NCBI GenBank assembly: GCA_951406725.2
Contig: OX597831.1
Coordinates: 75,144,001 to 75,208,000 of the forward strand
Reading direction: 5' to 3'
Source: Octopus vulgaris
Lineage: Eukaryota
DNA length: 64,000 bases
The translations under genes and the position numbers were made by a program. Shown one piece after another: positions 4,064 through 61,165 of this stretch (position 1 is its first letter; each line of letters opens with the position of its first letter). A model generated the notes under the pieces. It was not told the DNA's origin. It worked only from the letters and a program-made list of their open reading frames with translations, and did no database searches.

Positions 4064-7009
4064 TAGTGACTTTAGGATCAGAGTGACTTTAGGATCAGGA
4101 CTAGGAGGACAACCAGAAGACGACAAATATGGAGAAGAAGGATCTGGAAGCTTAAAGATCCTGCAAATGGACAGAGATTTAGGGACATATTACTTGAAGC
4201 CTCTGACGAAGTAGAAGGGGATAGAGCATCACAGGGGGTAGAAGACAGCTGGACGTTTCTAAGGGACAACCTGCTGAGAGCCACTGACCAGATCTGTGGC
4301 TGGTGCAAAGTCCCCTCTCGACCTAGAATAACGTGGTGGTGGAACAATATTGTAGACAGGGCTATTAGAGAAAAGAGACAGGCTTGGAAGGTCTGGAAAA
4401 ATGGGGGTAGCAGGGGATTGTATCAGACTGCCAAAAGAGAAGCTAGGAGACAGGTTTATTTAGCCAGAGGGGAAGCAGATAAGAAAAAATTTGCCAATGT
4501 TCTGCGCCGTGAGGACCAAAGACTGGAGGTGTTTCGTGTTGCAAGACAGTGTGTGAGAGAGAATCGTGATGTGGTAGGAGAGAAGTGTGTTCGCATGGAA
4601 GATGGTTCACTTGCGCTAAATGAGGATGCAAAGAGAGAGGTTTGGAGATGCCACTATGAAAGGTTGCTGAATGAAGAAAATGAATGGGATAAAGAGAGTC
4701 TGCCGAATGTTGACCCAACAGAGGGACCAGCTATCCGAGTTGATAGTTCCGTGGTAGCTAAGGCAATTAGAAGCATGAAGACAGGGAAAGCCCCAGGCCC
4801 ATCAGGAATCACTGCAGAGATGCTCAAAATGTCTGGTAGTGTCGGCTATAGCCTAGTCACCCGTATAGTTAATCAGGTGATACACAAAGGGGTCATACCC
4901 AATGACTGGTGTAGCAGTATAATAGTCAACTGCTACAAAGGTAAAGGTGATGCCCTAGATACAAATAACTACAGAGGTATCAAGCTGTTGGACCAGGTGA
5001 TGAAGGTTACGGAGAGGGTCATAGCCCAACTAATTAGAGAGAGAGTTAGTTTAGATGAGATGCAGTTTGGGTTTGTGCCAGGGAAAAGTACTACTGATGC
5101 TATATTCCTGGTAAGGCAGCTGCAGGAGAAATACCTAGCCAAAGATAAGCCCCTGTACCTGGCTTTTGTTGACATGGAGAAAGCCTTCGACAGGGTCCCC
5201 CGATCCCTTATCTGGTGGGCAATGAGGAAACTAGGGATAGATGAATGGTTAGTGAGCGCTGTGCGGGCCATGTATAGGGACGCCGCTAGTAGGGTGAGGG
5301 TTGGAAATGTGTACAGTGAAGAATTCCGGGTAGAGGTAGGAGTCCACCAAGGCTCAGTACTCAGCCCCCTCCTATTTATCATAGTCCTCCAGGCAATAAC
5401 GGAGGAATTCAAGACAGGATGCCCTTGGGAGCTCCTCTATGCTGATGACCTTGCTCTAATTGCTGAGTCGCTATCAGAACTGGAGGAGAAGTTTCAGGTG
5501 TGGAAACAAGGATTAGAATCGAAGGGCCTCAGAGTCAATCTAGCTAAAACCAAAGTCGTAATCAGTAGGAAGGTAGACAAATCACAAACACCTTCAGGTA
5601 GATGGCCCTGCTCGATCTGTAGAAAAGGTGTAGGTAGAAACTCTATAAGATGCACCAAGTGTAAGCTATGGACACATAAGAGATGCAGCAATGTCAAAGG
5701 AAGGCTAACTAGGAAGATGGTTTTTGTATGTGGCAGATGCTCAGGAACAATAAACACTGAAAATGCTCTGAGACCAACTTCCGTCACTTTCCAGGGAGAA
5801 AAACTAGAAATAGTTGATAGTTTCCGTTACCTAGGTGACCAAGTCAGCAGCGGGGGCGGGTGTGCTGAAAGTGTAACTGCTAGAGTAAGAATAGCTTGGG
5901 CAAAGTTCAGAGAGCTCTTACCTTTGCTGGTGACAAAAGGCCTCTCGCACAGAGTGAAAGGCAGACTGTATGATGCGTGTGTACGAACAGCCATGCTACA
6001 TGGCAGTGAAACATGGGCCGTGACTGCTGAGGATATGCGTAAGCTCGCTAGAAATGAAGCCAGTATGCTCCGATGGATGTGTAATGCCGGTACTCACACT
6101 CGGCAGAGTGTAAGTACCTTGAGAGAAAAGCTGGACCTAAGAAGCATCAGTTGTGGTGTGCAAGAGAGACGTTTGCGCTGGTATGGTCATGTGGCGAGAA
6201 TGGATGAAGATAGTTGTGTGAAAAAGTGCCACACCCTAGCAGTTGAGGGAACCTGTGGAAGAGGCAGACCCAGGAAAACCTGGGACGAGGTGGTGAAGCA
6301 CGACCTTCGAACTTTAGGTCTCACTGAGGAAATGACTAGAGACCGAGACCTCTGGAAGTGTGCTGTGCGCGAGAAGACCCAGCAGGACAAGTGAGTCCAT
6401 AACCCGTGGCCTTCTACATGGGATGGAGCCAGCCTACGTATGCATACCTTCCCTTCTTGGGACACAAAACTCTACTTGTGAAGACGTGTTGAGGCAAGTG
6501 AGGATCAGAATCGAAATCTATCAATGGAAATTGCGGATGTGCTACCAGTGCCGGTGGCATGTCAAAACTCTGCTTGTGAAGACCCGTTGAGGCAAGTGAG
6601 GATCAGAATCGAAATCGATCAATGAAAATCGATCAATGGAAATTGCAGATGTGTTACCAGTGCCGGTGGCATGTAAGAGAACTTTCCGTTTCACGACCGT
6701 TGCAAGCACCGCCCCGTTTCGTGTCCGTTGCCAGCCTCGCCTGGCCCTCGTGCCGGTGGCACATAAAAAGCACCATCCGTTCGTGGCCGTTTGCCAGCTC
6801 TGTCTGGCACCAGTGCGGGTGGCACGTAAAAAGCACCCACTAAACACACGGAGTGGTTGGCGTTAGGAAGGGCATCCAGCCGTAGAAACACTGCCAGATT
6901 TGACTGGGCCTGATGAAGCCTTCTGGCTTCACAGACCCCAGTAGAACCGTCCAACCCATGCTAGCATGGAAAACGGACGCTAAACGATGATGATGATGAT
7001 GATGATGAT
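4064..7009 (+). mobile_element. RTE-clade LINE, 5'-truncated, with repetitive 3' UTR and (GAT)n tail
   Basis: Open frame from ~4082 to 6394 with RT motifs (KAPGPSG, NYRGIKLL, QFGF, FVDMEKAFD, GVHQGSVLSP, LLYADD, FRYLG) and an RTE-type C-terminus (RLRWYGHV, RGRPRKTW); most of the APE domain is missing; 5' junction has a 17-bp tandem duplication. Confidence 0.95.
4418..6394 (+). CDS. RTE reverse transcriptase ORF (uninterrupted) with an embedded PHD-type zinc finger
   Basis: 658-aa ORF in the track; YADD motif; C4HC3 pattern CSIC..CTKC..H..C..CGRC at 5609-5740. Confidence 0.93.
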   Translation: MYQTAKREARRQVYLARGEADKKKFANVLRREDQRLEVFRVARQCVRENRDVVGEKCVRMEDGSLALNEDAKREVWRCHYERLLNEENEWDKESLPNVDPTEGPAIRVDSSVVAKAIRSMKTGKAPGPSGITAEMLKMSGSVGYSLVTRIVNQVIHKGVIPNDWCSSIIVNCYKGKGDALDTNNYRGIKLLDQVMKVTERVIAQLIRERVSLDEMQFGFVPGKSTTDAIFLVRQLQEKYLAKDKPLYLAFVDMEKAFDRVPRSLIWWAMRKLGIDEWLVSAVRAMYRDAASRVRVGNVYSEEFRVEVGVHQGSVLSPLLFIIVLQAITEEFKTGCPWELLYADDLALIAESLSELEEKFQVWKQGLESKGLRVNLAKTKVVISRKVDKSQTPSGRWPCSICRKGVGRNSIRCTKCKLWTHKRCSNVKGRLTRKMVFVCGRCSGTINTENALRPTSVTFQGEKLEIVDSFRYLGDQVSSGGGCAESVTARVRIAWAKFRELLPLLVTKGLSHRVKGRLYDACVRTAMLHGSETWAVTAEDMRKLARNEASMLRWMCNAGTHTRQSVSTLREKLDLRSISCGVQERRLRWYGHVARMDEDSCVKKCHTLAVEGTCGRGRPRKTWDEVVKHDLRTLGLTEEMTRDRDLWKCAVREKTQQDK

Positions 7010-35954: not shown

Positions 35955-36999
35955 AAATATATACGTTTTTATTATTATTTTGCAATTTACTTAAATCATC
36001 GGTATATTATTGTTATTTTATATCTAATATTTCTATTATACGTAATTTTCTGGATGGTGTAACTGAATTGCTCATTTTGAATTGATAAAAGGTGGTTTTT
36101 GTAATTTATATATATAGATATAATATTTTGTGAAATTTGATTTAGTATTTCTAAATTGAATTTTTCCCTGTAAGTTAGGAATAATATTCCCTCAAATAAT
36201 TATTATATATATATATATATGCATTTGCGTTTATGTACATACATGCATGCATGTGTATGTCTCCCTGCTTGACAACTGATGCTGGACTGTTTATGGCCTT
36301 GTAACTTAGCAGTTTCCTCAAAAGGAACTGATATAATAAGGATACAGAGACTGGTAGAATAGGGCCCACTGAGGTCAATTTGAGGGACAAACCTCTTTGA
36401 CCCTTCACCATTCAGATTATTCTGTCAAATGTAATGCTTAATCATTTTGCATTGATCCTGCATTATCTCATAGCCTCGAGATTTTGATGATGTCATTGCA
36501 TATTTTTAGAATGACATTGTAGGGTAGGTGTGAGAGGCTGGATCTGGCTGGATTGAACATAAAACAGGTTGAATATTTTGGGCCGGATATGGTCAGTTGA
36601 AATGCTAAAAGATTAGGGGAGCACTCCAGCATGGGCACAGTCTGATGATTGAAACAAGCAAGAGAAACACAAAAAAAAGAAAGAAAAAATATTAACGTAA
36701 AAGGCGAAGCTGTGTGGTCAAGAAGATCGCTTTGCAATTTCATGGTTTGGGGTTCAGTCCCACTGTATGGTACCACGAACAAGTAGTCTCTACTATAGCC
36801 CTTGGCTGACCGATGCATCGAAAATGAATAAGGTGCACAGTGCATGTGCGCACGCCCACGTCTGGATGCATGCATATATCTTTGTATTTGTCTCTCGCTG
36901 CTCGATAAATCAATATGGTTTATTCATTTTAAAGTTTATAGATTTTCAATAAAATTCAGAACCGACACCGAAAGTTATGACAAATACATCCATGTAAAC

Positions 37000-37683
37000 A
37001 ATACAATCAGACAAGCTGAAGAATCTGTGCGGCAGAGAGTTGTATTTAGATATGAATGGAGGCACCCGAGTAAAGCGCTGGAGGGCCACGAGGAAGAGAA
37101 GGGACCCGCTTGTGTGAAAATAGGGGAGGAAGTCTGGGTTAAGCCACCAAAGGCGCGCTGTGCGTCTCAATGGAGCAGAGGAACGGTGACAGCGGTCAAT
37201 TCCAGAAACAACGTCTCCATGGATGGAATGCCGTGACACGTCTTGGACCTTCGCAGGATTGTCGCTTCGTTGGATGATGATTGTGGAGAGTGGGAGAATG
37301 AGGTGCTTGGCTTGAGAAGATCTCGATGTGCAAGGCGCCCTCCCGGTTGGATGGTGGACTATGACATGGAGCGGAGAGATTGTGATCTTTAAGATCAGGG
37401 TGGCATGTGGGATGACGTCAGCAGCTAGGGAGCTGACCGGAACTTGGGGCTGACCATAAGGGGCAGAAGGGACGCGCACGCAGGTAGGGCGGGATTCTGC
37501 CTTTTCGATCAAGGTCGCTGAGCGAGTAAGACGGGACAGTGCGTTGTTAAGGTAGGGGCAAAGCAGCTGCTATTTCTAGTGTTCAGGTCGGGCTGTGTTG
37601 AAGGATCCATTACCGCTGAAAGGTCTCCGTCTGAGCGAAGAGAAGGTAGGTGCCCTTATTCCGAATCTCTCGCATACACCACA
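37000..37683 (+). mobile_element. Ty3/gypsy-type LTR retrotransposon 3' part: integrase C-terminus, purine-rich tract and 3' LTR (37406-37683)
   Basis: IGEEVWVKPP..W..GTV integrase-end motif with a stop; LTR TGTGGG...CACCACA of 278 bp. Confidence 0.85.
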
Positions 37684-38051
37684 ATTTTAATTATTAAATA
37701 TTAATTTAATGATAAAAAAAAACAAAAAAAAAAACAAATAGGTAATGAGTTCTCACTCTTTCATCAATGCCGCATCCGACCCATTAACCCTACCTGAACA
37801 CATTTTGCTTAAATCCCAACAAAGTTTAGTGGTGTAACACAACTGGAGAGACCAATTAATATACTAAATAAATTCCTGGTACCTACAGCCCTACGACTTA
37901 ACAGTTTGACAAAGAGCGACCAATAGAATAAGGACCAGACTTGAAAATAAGGACTCAAGTGAATTTGATCAACTAAAAAGAAGGCAGTGCTCCAGCATAG
38001 CCACAGTGAAACCAGTGAAAGTATCCCAACATGACCCCCCAATCAACTCAC

Positions 38052-38232
38052 TTGATACACTCCAAATGGCTAAGTTGTACAATACAGAGATCCACATCAT
38101 CGGCTTTATCCAGAATATTCCACAAAATCTCCACTGTGCGAAGTAAAGGGTGTCCACCTGTGTCGTTGGGTGTGATCTGTGAGCAAAGGGTATAGGGCAG
38201 GTTTCCTTCCAGCATCTGATCACAGCAAGGCG
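38052..38232 (-). CDS. CFAP69: CFAP69 exon 5: PCCDQMLEGNLPYTLCSQ...LLRTVEILWNILDKADD...QLSHLECI
   Basis: tttcag acceptor, GTGAGT donor; 181 nt, phase 1 to 2. Confidence 0.9.
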
Positions 38233-38319
38233 CTGAAAATAAGCAGCAGAGAAATTATAAGGGAAGAGTAGAAAATTACTATTTTTAAATCTCACAACGA
38301 GAGACATTCAGCAACAGTA

Positions 38320-38705
38320 CTTTGTAGTAAAGATTGTTTGCCAACATAACATGGCAGTCCTGGTTTAGGACGAATGTTACTGTAATTTAGCCCCAGGAGA
38401 CATCGTCTCCAGTTGGCTATATGACACGACCTGTGTCCTTATATTTTCAAACAAGGCAATCTAGTACCCCACCCAGCTCAAAACAATTATTCTGTGCTGA
38501 TGAAGGGAAATAACCCAGAAATCGTGATACACAGATATTGTTTTGAGCTGAGTGAGGGTGCTAGATTCCCTTGTTCAAAAATGTAAAGACACAGATTGTG
38601 TCGTATAGCCAACTGGAGACGATGTCTCCTGAGGCTAAATTACAGCAACAATAGTCCTAAACCAGGACTGCCATGTTATGTTGGCAAACAATCTTTACTA
38701 TAAAG
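38320..38705. repeat. Fold-back element with ~170-bp arms and a hammerhead core at the apex
   Basis: Arms 38320-38487 / 38537-38705 are reverse complements with scattered mismatches. Confidence 0.9.
38491..38535 (+). ncRNA. Type-I hammerhead-like ribozyme whose stem I continues as the long hairpin
   Basis: TCTGTG-CTGATGA-AGGG(AAATAA)CCCA-GAAATCGTGATA-CACAGA; A.A mismatch at the base of stem II. Confidence 0.6.
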
Positions 38706-39227
38706 GAAGACAGCTTAGATATTCTTTTCTACTCTAGGCAGAAGGCTCGAAATTTTGTGGGAGGAGGCCAGTCAATTAGATCGACCCCAGTATGCAACTG
38801 GTACTTAATTTATTGACCCCAAAAGGATGAAAGGCAAAGTCGACCTCAGCAGAATTTGAACTCAGAAAGGAAAAAACAGACGAAATACCACTAAGCATTT
38901 CACCCAGCATGCTAACATTTCTGCCAGCTCACCGCCTTCAGTTAGATGAAATATTGTAAAACAGAGGTTATCAGTTGATTTTTTGTGGAGCTGTGGTGCA
39001 TTGGAAGTTAAAATATTGATGGTGTGGTTTGCATGAGAAGTTAAAATCATTGGAGTACTCGGCATGGGGAGATGAGAGTCAGATCAAAATACTGGGTCTG
39101 ATGATCCATCAGATGGCTTTGGGAAGCCGTATTTTTAACACAAAAGTCTCTTTGGGATGTTTCTCAGAGACAGACTATTATAGCCAGTGCTGTTCCATGT
39201 GTGTAAAACATCTTATAAATGTGTATA

Positions 39228-41260: not shown

Positions 41261-41728
41261 ATAAAATAAGGCGCCTTGCTCAAGGACATAAACTGCCGGG
41301 GATTGAAATCCTGACCTTACAATCATGAGCCGAATACACTAACCACTAAGGCATGTGCCTTCACATATTCTTTATAAATGTATATATAATACATGGGTAT
41401 TTTAAAGGTCATTTTTGTGGGATGACGTCAGCAGCTGGGGAGCTGACCGGAACTTGGGGCTGACCGGAAGGGGCAGGAGGGACACGCGTGCAGGTAGGGC
41501 AGGATTCTGCCTTTTCAATCGAGGTCACCGAGCGAGTAAGACGGGACAGCATGTTCTTAAGGTAAGGGCGAAGCAGCTGCTATTTCTAGTGTTCGGGTTG
41601 GGCTGTGTTGAAGGATCCATTACTGCTGAAGGGTCTCCATCTGAGCGAAGAGAAGGTAGGTGCCTTTATTTCGAATCTCTCGCATACACCACAAGCTATT
41701 TCGGCTCTCCATATAAGACGTCACCACG

Positions 41729-42490
41729 ATGGCAGCGAAAATTAGGATCGCCAGCAACATTATCAGACCCTTTAATGGTGAAGGCGATGTAGTAGCCTGG
41801 ATTCGTAAAATCAGGCTGGTGGCAAGACTGCAAGGTATAAGCGATGTGGCAAGTCTTATGGCGCTGTATTTGGAAGGGAGTGCGTTGATGCTATACCTTG
41901 AGATGGACGAGGAAGAACGTCTGAGCGAGGAAAAGATAGAGCAACGTCTGCGGGATGCTTACACCGAGTGTGAGTATACAGCTTTTGCTAAGCTGGGTAC
42001 GATTAGATGGACGGGAGGACAGGTGGACGAATACGCGGCAGAAGTTCGAAGGTTAGCAACGCTGGCTGGGTTTACAGAAGGGCTGGAGAGAGCAGCGCGA
42101 CTGGCATTCGTAAATGGGTTCCCCGACGATGTAGGGATTCACCTACAAAAATTGCCTGGGAATAAAAAGATGGTGCTGAGCGAACTTGTGACTCAAGCCC
42201 GCGTGTTGACGCGACACGCTGGGCGGAAGGCGACAGCGATGGCAGTGACGGAGGTGCGTAAAGATGGCCGACGGCTGGAGAAAGACGTTCAGAAGCCTGC
42301 CGTGCAACGACGGCGGCCATTCTCAGGTCGGTGTTTTAGATGTCAGGGGTCGCACATGGCGAGGGAGTGTACACTACCGGGACCCGTTTCCTATCGATGC
42401 AGGCAGGCAGGGCACATCGCCCGTGATTGCGACCAGGGTAACGACCGTGGGGAAGTTGCTGCATCTCAAACTTTCCCTGCAAACGATTAG
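41729..42490 (+). CDS. gag: Retrotransposon Gag with CCHC zinc knuckles
   Basis: 253-aa ORF; PFNGEGDVVAW N-terminus; CFRCQGSHMAREC and a degenerate YRCRQAGHIARDC. Confidence 0.85.
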   Translation: MAAKIRIASNIIRPFNGEGDVVAWIRKIRLVARLQGISDVASLMALYLEGSALMLYLEMDEEERLSEEKIEQRLRDAYTECEYTAFAKLGTIRWTGGQVDEYAAEVRRLATLAGFTEGLERAARLAFVNGFPDDVGIHLQKLPGNKKMVLSELVTQARVLTRHAGRKATAMAVTEVRKDGRRLEKDVQKPAVQRRRPFSGRCFRCQGSHMARECTLPGPVSYRCRQAGHIARDCDQGNDRGEVAASQTFPAND

Positions 42491-42498
42491 AGGCGATT

Positions 42499-43050
42499 TT
42501 GGAGAAGCTGCCATTAATTGATGTCGAGGCCGAGGGGAAGACGTTCGAGGCCCTCGTAGATACGGGCTGCACGACGACACTTGTGACTTCAAGGGTGATG
42601 AAGAAATGGAATGGGGCAAGTAGCGTCCGGGTGGTCGACGGCAGCAAAATCCATTGCAAAGGCAGCAGCAAGGTAGAGATAGTGGTGCGAGGCACAACGC
42701 TAAGGCTGCAGGTAATTGTGGCTGAATGCGTGGTGATGGGGATGGACGCCATCAACCACCTCAGTGGCGTCAGTATTGTGGGAGATGAGGTCACATTCGG
42801 AAGTGTGGGGGCGTCGTGCTCTGCAAGTCAGGATCGCCAGAGAGAGCAGAGCCCCGCGAAGGACTGCGCTGCTTACACCATCGAGGACAAAGACTTTCAG
42901 GCGGCGTTCGATGGTCAGCGGTGGACGATAGAGTGGCGATGGAAGGACAAGTCCCCGAAGCTGAAAAACAGAGTGAGCTGCTACCAGCATACCCTGAAAG
43001 GCCACGCCAGGGTCGTGTTTGAAGACGAGGTGGAGACGTTTCAGCAGTAA
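42499..43050 (+). pseudogene. Retroviral-type aspartic protease and start of pol, truncated
   Basis: ALVDTGC active site and VMGMD; in the -1 frame to gag; ends at the inversion junction. Confidence 0.85.
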
Positions 43051-43587
43051 TGGATCCTTCAACACAGCCTGACCCGAACACTAGAAATAGCAGCTGCTTC
43101 ACCCTTACCTTAACAACGCGCTGTCCCGTCTTACTCACTCGGAGACCTCAATCGAAAAGGCAGAATCCTGCCCTACCAGCGCGCGTCCCTCCTACTCATT
43201 AGAGCAACATGAAACAAAGTGTTTTGCTGCTGACTAGTCTGGGGATTGAACCCACAATCTAATCATTGTGAATGCAACACACTAACCACTAATTTATATT
43301 CTTAAAAATCAGCAACACACCTACAAATTCATTCTATGTAACCATTTGAGGACCAGTGGTGTAGAGAAAACTGTGGTGGTGGTCAGGTGAAAGAAGTGGC
43401 ACAAACAGCCAGGTCATGAGTTCACGTCTCACTACAGACACTGTCACACTGAATCGGTGTTCTTGTTTAGTTTACATGTTAACATTGATTAAGCAAATCT
43501 AAGATTAAAGACTGTACCAATTCCACAGATTTCTCTGGAACTCTACCATCCACTGTAAATATTGATTTAATAAAAAAAATTAAATCA

Positions 43588-51202: not shown

Positions 51203-51613
51203 GAAAATAGGAAATCCGTTGGAAAAACAAAAACAGAACAGAGGCGGAGCAAAAACAAATCGAACTATGCTCCTAAGAGCATATTAACCTTTGATTAATC
51301 TACTACAAGATTATTCATCTTTCTATTTCACATATATATATATATATATATATATATTATACTTACAAATTGAGATAGGGGTTGTAAATGCAACCCTCTA
51401 TGGGATAACGTATATCCAATATACTGCTAGTGAAGTACCCAACAAAGTTAATACATAAATGTTAATGATTGCGATGCAATCATATATATATATATACATA
51501 CATACACACCAGAGTAAAGCACATAAATGTGAAACAAAGTGGAAAAAAGAGTACTCAAATGCCAGAGGTAGAGTAATATGCTTTATTTAAAAGCAGCAGA
51601 AATATAACAAAAG

Positions 51614-51651
51614 CTGTTACTCAGAGTTTCACGTTCCCATTCGTCAGACAG
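51614..51651 (-). ncRNA. Minimal type-I hammerhead ribozyme in element 51508-51722, with an inverted partial copy at 51659-51722
   Basis: Minus strand: CTGT-CTGACGA-ATG(GGAA)CGT-GAAACTCTGAGTA-ACAG. Confidence 0.7.
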
Positions 51652-52116
51652 TTTTGTTTGTCCGACAAATGGGAAACTCTGAGTAACAGCTTTTGTTATA
51701 TTTCTGCTGCTGTTAAATAAAGTCTCTATATATCACCATCATCCTCATTATTTAACGTCTGGCATGGGTTGGACGGCTTGACCAAGGCTGGCAGGCTGGA
51801 AGTCTGCACCAGACTCCAGTTTGATTTGGCATCGTTTCTACGTCTTGATGCCCTTCCAAATGCCCACCATTCCGAGAGTGCAATGTGTGGTTTTACGTGC
51901 CACTGGCACAGGTGCCAGTTATGTGACACCATTATCTGCCACAACTACGATTACACTTGACTTCTACTCAAGCACAGCATATTGCCAAAGGTGTCGGTCA
52001 CTTGTCATTGCCTCTGTGGGGCCCAACACTCGAAAGGAGCCTTTCCACATGCCACTGCTGGCATCAGTGACTTTTTACATACCAGTTACATGACACCAGC
52101 ATCAGCCACAACTATA

Positions 52117-60447: not shown

Positions 60448-61165
60448 TGTGTGTTGCTAAATGCTTGTAACTGTCTTATTTCCTCTAAAAGCCACAGAAT
60501 AATTCAAAGCTGGGTGAAACAAAAATCACACCAGAAACAAACAAGAAGACATACATCAATATTTTGCAGTTTTGCTTCTCATTGGTGTTGTCTAAGTGCA
60601 GCTAGATGCGTTTAACCACACACCAACATTAAGTATGTGATACTGGGCATGTTTACAGTATCAAGCTATTTTAAGACAAACTTTGAATTTTGTTCTAATT
60701 GTGCAGCACTTTTTCACATCAGCAGATAGATTTTTATGCTTCTGGTTGACAATTCAAATTCATTTCAGAAATTAAATAAGACTATGGCACTGATGAGCAG
60801 GAAATACCATGAAATATCAATATATGTTGTTCTTGTTCACTTCCAGAGCAGTCTTTTTTTTTTTTGCCTAACTTGAAGTATCCTGTGTGTTTTAACACAA
60901 TATGTTTTTAAAGGAGCCTCACTGAGACAAAATACTGCAGAGACAAGTGTTTAACAACACTCATTAAATATATCATTTTGATAAGGCTTACATTATTGAG
61001 CTGCTTCTAACACAAAATTTGGAAAATGTTTTCATATTTTTCATCTAAAAAACAAGGAAGACACTGCAAATGAAAGATGCCAACCACATCAATTTACCAA
61101 TGGCACCAAGATTGTAAAAGAAAGAACCAAACACAATCACAGGGTATAAGATGATGTTCTCTTAC

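Follow-up and report, generated by a model that had tools for sequence, protein, structure and literature searches.

A hairpin with a hammerhead motif at its tip in an octopus CFAP69 intron, read as a probable single head-to-head insertion of a 352-nt retrozyme unit

Introduction

Metazoan non-LTR retrozymes, as described by Cervera and de la Pena (2020; PMC7229834), have units of 350–390 bp in mussel and 330/350 bp in axolotl, and circular RNA and cleavage, putative in the octopus family presented here, were shown for them. One of their ribozymes, the axolotl HHR_Amex2, carries a U.U mismatch at the base of stem II and nevertheless cleaves, to 22% as a monomer and much better as a dimer (PMC7229834). 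A palindromic helix III and dimer cleavage were likewise described for the hammerheads of Penelope-like elements (PLEs; PMC4209133), whose insertions contain an inverted 5′-truncated copy and a tail at one end (PMC8557442; PMC3846280). A purified PLE protein was shown to cut and extend both target strands and to start reverse transcription at two internal sites that match the tail; it was predicted to form a dimer (PMC11167929). The origin of the tandem and inverted structure of PLEs was presented as an open mechanistic question (PMC8557442), and the steps after priming as unvalidated (PMC11167929).

A recent preprint (bioRxiv 10.64898/2026.07.22.740005) argued from co-occurrence and phylogeny, mostly in vertebrates, that animal retrozymes are non-autonomous PLE derivatives; the same conclusion on the mobilising machinery is favoured here from insertion anatomy, and in the available text of that work the word 'tail' occurs 0 times and 'inverted' once, in a reference title. 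Literature searches outside older subscription articles and supplements, where such accounts may be in print, returned no description of the octopus family or of the two-ended model considered below.

The insertion in the CFAP69 intron

The window analysed here is a 64,000-nt stretch of the Octopus vulgaris contig OX597831.1, in which the initial annotation had placed a hairpin with ~170-bp arms and a ribozyme-like tip at 38320–38705. This hairpin is real: arms of 150 nt each (38320–38469 and 38556–38705) are 91% complementary, an additional inner pair of 21 nt joins 38467–38487 to 38537–38557, and RNA folding, which had been suggested as a check, yielded –281 kcal/mol with z = –30 against 100 shuffles. 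Its limits, however, are not those of the whole element, since an unpaired tail at 38269–38319 (minus strand) had been overlooked; with this tail of about 52 nt, the insertion extends from about 38269 to 38700. It is flanked by a target-site duplication read from the sequence, with a left copy at 38256–38267 (plus strand, edges ambiguous by 1–2 nt) and a right copy at 38699–38710 (plus strand), identical at 11 of 12 positions.

A BLAST search with the natural repeat unit of the family matched 38272–38487 to unit 349–133, in reverse orientation. This match covers the tail and the inverted arm at 38320–38487 (minus strand; unit 301 to 133), which is 5′-truncated and devoid of the ribozyme. The forward arm at 38481–38700 (plus strand) runs from unit 77 to about 299–301, carries the hammerhead and ends at the tail-less site, each arm of this copy being shorter than one unit. 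The two matches overlap at 38481–38487, a junction microhomology between the arms that derives from the complementarity of the native stem I (unit 78–84 with 133–139). We consider it probable that the hairpin arose when a 352-nt hammerhead repeat inserted once, head-to-head, into a CFAP69 intron, likely through a PLE RT-endonuclease acting in trans. The ~170-bp arms had been taken as part of the RNA element; they are instead the product of one head-to-head insertion event, and the junction position differs between copies.

The neighbouring exon (38051–38232, minus strand), which lies downstream of the insertion in the pre-mRNA, does belong to CFAP69 (Pfam PF21049, E 3e-15; PDB 9ijj), and the distance of 88 nt given between it and the hairpin is correct, although with the tail counted the insertion stands at about 35 nt from the acceptor AG. 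One contig of X1, a probable RNA run, covers 38052–38237 and then continues into other sequence, which is consistent with normal splicing of this exon. Contigs from two other species (X19 and X20), 6–7% diverged over the exon and its flank, extend into the tail by 35 and 46 nt; therefore, the insertion predates those splits. No empty site was seen among the contigs, X17 reaching only 27 nt, below the 31-nt bridge rule. The window copy is old, CpG-decayed and shared with two related species. At window position 38256, two other species have 8 extra bases between the pyrimidine tract of the acceptor and the insertion.

Other mobile-element remnants were observed by eye in the window. A 772-codon open frame at 4076–6394 (plus strand) resembles a LINE reverse transcriptase, and overlapping frames at 41717–43080 (plus strand) resemble an LTR-retrotransposon gag zinc knuckle and aspartic protease, with related fragments near 36830–37570.

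The hammerhead and the repeat family

The predicted type I hammerhead, delimited from the sequence and the family alignment, occupies 38492–38534 on the plus strand. It is composed of stem I (38492–38496/38530–38534), stem II (38505–38507/38514–38516, with a base mismatch at 38504/38517), a near-palindromic stem III (38521–38528) and the core boxes CTGATGA (38497–38503) and GAAA (38518–38521), with a predicted cut after the TA that ends at 38529; boxes and cut site lie where the initial annotation had placed them. The bare hammerhead pattern has 2 matches in the 64-kb window against 0.83 expected, which is not significant, and an Rfam scan of the hairpin gave no hammerhead family match at E ≤ 5, only sub-threshold matches to miRNA hairpins, so that family data were needed to decide. 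Another hammerhead-like match, at 60790–60824 (plus strand), has no copy elsewhere in the window and is within chance.

A first look in the genome yielded 3687 candidates for the hairpin, and a 28-nt motif near its outer end had 1041 exact matches, with 0 for the reversed control. In 51 family segments, each of 11 core positions carries the canonical base in 47–51 segments, and the core is fully intact in 36; the hammerhead is thus family-wide and not a chance motif in a MITE. Its reality is supported by this conservation and by a covarying sister family (see below). At the base of stem II, an A faces G in 30 segments or A in 21. In most copies, stem III forms an 8-nt palindrome; A38517 and T38525 of the window are CpG-type changes from the letters that prevail in the family. 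The stem II mismatch and the form of stem III, raised earlier as caveats, are thus present but do not count as defects, being family traits with precedent. The core is conserved among copies no better than other non-CpG positions (96.5% vs 95.6%), and this decay along with the rest of the copies is as expected for dead insertions. For the window copy, the monomeric active fold was modelled at 5.6 kcal/mol above the best fold.

The unit is a 352-nt head-to-tail repeat that contains the hammerhead, as given by copies that extend further upstream and by a 352-nt period in locus L039, and head-to-tail continuity was found in at least 16 of 85 loci. It is non-coding, with 38% GC and a longest stop-free run of 60 codons; neither an RT nor a GIY-YIG ORF is present, and tblastn with PLE proteins gave matches only outside the elements, where these were inspected. 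Among the best 30 loci (29 distinct), a 52-nt extension goes beyond the inverted repeat on one side only, flanking duplications measure 7–12 bp by eye, and the junction moves between copies.

These traits, namely the type I hammerhead, the tandem non-coding unit, the low GC content and duplications longer than 4 bp, identify the family by sequence criteria as a non-LTR retrozyme. As in the metazoan elements, the unit is about 350 nt, non-coding, tandem and low in GC, with duplications above 4 bp and a type I hammerhead with a short palindromic helix III (PMC7229834). Unlike those elements, the octopus copies are mostly one-tailed head-to-head fold-backs rather than long arrays, and the word 'inverted' is absent from the main text of PMC7229834. 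It is with endonuclease-containing PLEs that this anatomy is shared: their 5′ end carries an inverted, 5′-truncated copy, partial tandems are present and one of the two ends is tailed (PMC8557442, PMC3846280), and they have a hammerhead in the repeat and, in Adineta PLEs, duplications of 8–10 bp (PMC8557442, PMC3846280, PMC11167929, PMC4209133). The differences are that the octopus unit has no ORF and that its tail is about 52 nt, longer than the 30–40 nt described for PLEs, a discrepancy that we count against the PLE reading. The hairpin layout had been called unfamiliar among retrozymes, which holds for the retrozyme papers compared, in the parts of them considered, but not for PLEs, in which it has been described (PMC8557442, PMC3846280). 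The family is a further case of a known element kind, a non-LTR retrozyme with the PLE insertion signature.

Anatomy of unselected copies

An unselected sample was drawn from the first 100 listed places of the 28-nt motif (of 1041), which gave 85 loci, all on contigs C1–C2; 68 were head-to-head fold-backs and 17 single-armed or unclassified. One arm ends near unit 299 and the other about 52 nt further, both are independently truncated at their 5′ side and join head-to-head, and a duplication of 10–13 bp flanks the insertion. Outer ends fell at two sites, about unit 290–307 and 344–354, and 59 of the 61 fold-backs with both ends classifiable had one tailed and one tail-less end (p 8e-16 against an independent 50:50 choice); an independent choice of start site is therefore excluded. 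The tail was found at either end among copies. Duplications scoring at least 8, mostly of 9–13 bp, accompanied 50 of 68 fold-backs against 3 of 68 flank-swapped controls.

Inner ends, in turn, were spread over the whole unit. The ribozyme region was retained in one arm of 31 fold-backs, in both arms of 6 and in neither arm of 31. The tail-less arm reaches further 5′ in 30 of 54 cases (three unreliable loci dropped), hence the arms are not nested, and the window copy is among these non-nested cases. Junctions were mapped in 65 simple cases and counted in 61, four unreliable alignments and three complex loci being left out, and 36 of the 61 either contain inserted bases or lack microhomology. 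Arm ends were not enriched at the predicted cut site, bin 120–129 containing 3 of 122. Arm ends cluster at predicted hairpins, at about unit 213–222, 177–188 and 109–118, including the loop of a 6-bp hairpin near unit 218–220, which suggests, as far as the folding model is followed, RT stops at structure.

The window-type junction, with 6–7 nt of microhomology, was found in 4 of the 65 mapped cases (L061, L095, L115 and L123), and its exact sequence matches the genome 7 times, compared with 308 times for the native upstream context; the ratio is rough, the pattern used for the latter being degenerate. Among eight window-type copies, the diagnostic columns 102 and 296 vary, as does the arm that is tailed; therefore, this junction formed repeatedly. 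Microhomologies at other junctions also map to stems of the predicted RNA fold. Three pairs of insertions (L142/L143, L126/L134 and L116/L117) have the same junction in different flanks, so the loci are not fully independent; such pairs may be inherited from an earlier fold-back or mark hotspots. Re-transposition of a whole fold-back was considered for L031, L044, L052 and L058, on four contigs, and was rejected, since they share their flanks and represent one insertion carried as a passenger inside a larger dispersed repeat.

The layout with the ribozyme at the apex is an occasional outcome, a by-product of where the two halves joined. This bears on the proposal that the hairpin is a selected functional RNA, whether an siRNA or ADAR substrate, a replication intermediate or a regulator of the CFAP69 exon, which we hold to be very improbable. 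In its favour are a fold that is very stable on both strands, an intact core, an insertion retained at this position in two other species, and the native unit, which is already predicted to form an imperfect rod of about 50 bp capped by the core. Against it, only a minority of copies show this layout by both counts given above. Moreover, the two arms of the window copy resemble each other no more than is usual in the family (91.5% within copies, 90.8% between), and they depart from the prevailing family letters at 10 of 216 and 14 of 225 positions, which gives no sign of maintained pairing. The core is also, as had been recognised earlier, antisense to CFAP69, the minus strand being without a core, and the stem III dimer helix is predicted to be weakened in this copy (–3.4 vs –10.1 kcal/mol). 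The genomic copy in the window is most likely an inert, old passenger.

An ordinary MITE with a hammerhead-like motif by chance would also account for long inverted arms and a high copy number, but this reading was refuted and retains hardly any probability: the ends are asymmetric and not inverted repeats, one of them having the 52-nt tail, length and apex vary, the long duplications vary around 10–13 bp, tandem units are present, and the core is family-wide and covaries with that of the sister family.

Autonomous PLEs and related families

Intact autonomous elements with RT and GIY-YIG domains are present in the genome. A GIY-YIG scan listed 148 matches, from 150 scored of 6136 candidates, and none of the 50 GIY-YIG loci taken from it (30 short, 20 long) contained an autonomous element sharing the 352-nt unit; therefore, the link to PLEs rests on the insertion signature. 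The same fold-back was found around an ORF in at least 3 of the 20 long PLE loci (L180, L185 and L193), and L185 has in addition a one-sided tail and a hammerhead-like motif with a T.T mismatch at the base of stem II and a CCGAAGA core. With no ORF in its unit, the octopus element behaves like a PLE passenger and is not an autonomous PLE. As a separate observation, L185:2312–5492 is a 5′-truncated autonomous PLE with inverted arms of 766–775 bp at 99–100% identity.

Candidate partners were rejected. The only match from the 50 GIY-YIG loci, of 34 nt, led to a sister retrozyme family and not to a PLE, a PLE fragment 460 nt from the L034 element lies outside that element's duplication, and a young PLE family with a 781-aa product has no sequence in common with the unit. 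The copies of this young family (L178:1430–6672, L179–L184, L192 and L193) are 93–99% alike. Their RT+GIY-YIG frames, of 781 aa, are intact, and the frame upstream, of 479 aa, has no Pfam match; they also contain a 456-bp direct repeat and, after the ORF, repeats of 58–93 bp with CCAAT/TGACGTC-like motifs; a pattern search found no hammerhead in them.

The sister retrozyme family has a colinear 357-nt unit, with 203 identical aligned positions and an alignment score of 193 against 77 ± 10 for shuffled sequences. The fold is preserved in it while the sequences of stems I, II and III have changed, that is, by covariation; in its hammerhead, stem II starts with a C.A mismatch at its base and stem III is a separate 8-nt palindrome. 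This family was found at L185:6090–6312 and L198–L227, with 2521 first-look candidates, and some of its fold-backs have one short (315–321) and one long (355–357) end. A third small head-to-head element, at L191:6300–6520, has a hammerhead-like motif in both arms, with A.A at the base of stem II, and stretches 69–74% similar to it lie at 1842–2058 and 51562–51733 of the window.

A proposed two-ended model of integration

In LINE-1 twin priming, two target ends prime cDNA on one RNA and an inversion results; the second of these primers anneals internally, leaving hardly any overlap between the two parts. The octopus fold-backs are comparable in that two target ends would prime on one RNA, with inversion as the result, but both octopus cDNAs would start near the RNA 3′ region at fixed sites, so that the arms overlap as a palindrome, unlike those of LINE-1.

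In the proposed course of events, the enzyme would nick both target strands 10–13 bp apart, and each target 3′ end would prime a cDNA on the retrozyme RNA, one per start site, both within one asymmetric and probably dimeric complex. The two antisense cDNAs would then be joined end to end, often at complementarity provided by RNA stems; in the window copy, they would have met in the native stem I, leaving one core at the apex. The likely job of the hammerhead would lie in the source RNA, where tandem transcripts would be cut into monomers, probably as dimers via the palindromic stem III, and the monomers would then circularise. We lean, with some reserve, towards the view that the fold-backs record PLE integration of this form, with an asymmetric dimer, two target ends, two start sites, one small and possibly circular RNA, and joining at stems. 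We count against this explanation the many arms that run through an uncut hammerhead, the missing peak of arm ends at the predicted cut site, the ordinary conservation of the core among copies and the 17 single-armed or unclassified loci.

The principal alternative is that a palindromic intermediate is formed first, by cDNA fold-back, by self-priming on an antisense template or by transcription of an existing fold-back, and that an endonuclease then trims its ends at two sites. Self-priming was proposed in outline in PMC3846280 and a tail left by endonuclease resolution in PMC8557442, and trimming of this kind would likewise leave each insertion with a single tail. An existing junction can be copied again, as is shown by junctions that recur in different flanks and by the nested –+–+ copies (L126, L134 and L136). 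Also in its favour, variants are shared more often by the two arms of one copy (16 of 254) than between copies (426 of 17000). However, a plain fold-back predicts nested arms, which is contradicted by 30 of 54 cases, and only the version with later trimming survives; the 36 of 61 junctions with inserted bases or no microhomology offer nothing to prime a fold-back, and the two sites correspond to RT start sites in vitro (PMC11167929). We regard this alternative as unlikely, and two-ended priming as the preferred reading.

Implications

With its place established, there is nothing unusual about the hairpin itself, which is an old insertion of a known element kind, and the family is the more useful object. 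The family is short and present in high copy number, its one-tail rule is nearly strict and its arms are truncated independently of each other; this makes two-ended priming directly testable, both in the genome and in vitro. The family also lends support, from the insertions themselves, to the idea that PLE machinery carries animal retrozymes. As a side effect, such insertions scatter long hairpins across introns in a group of animals noted for extensive A-to-I editing. If the two-ended model is true, the inverted pLTR and the one-sided tail would be explained by a single mechanism, and the fold-backs would constitute direct insertion-level evidence that PLE enzymes mobilise animal retrozymes.
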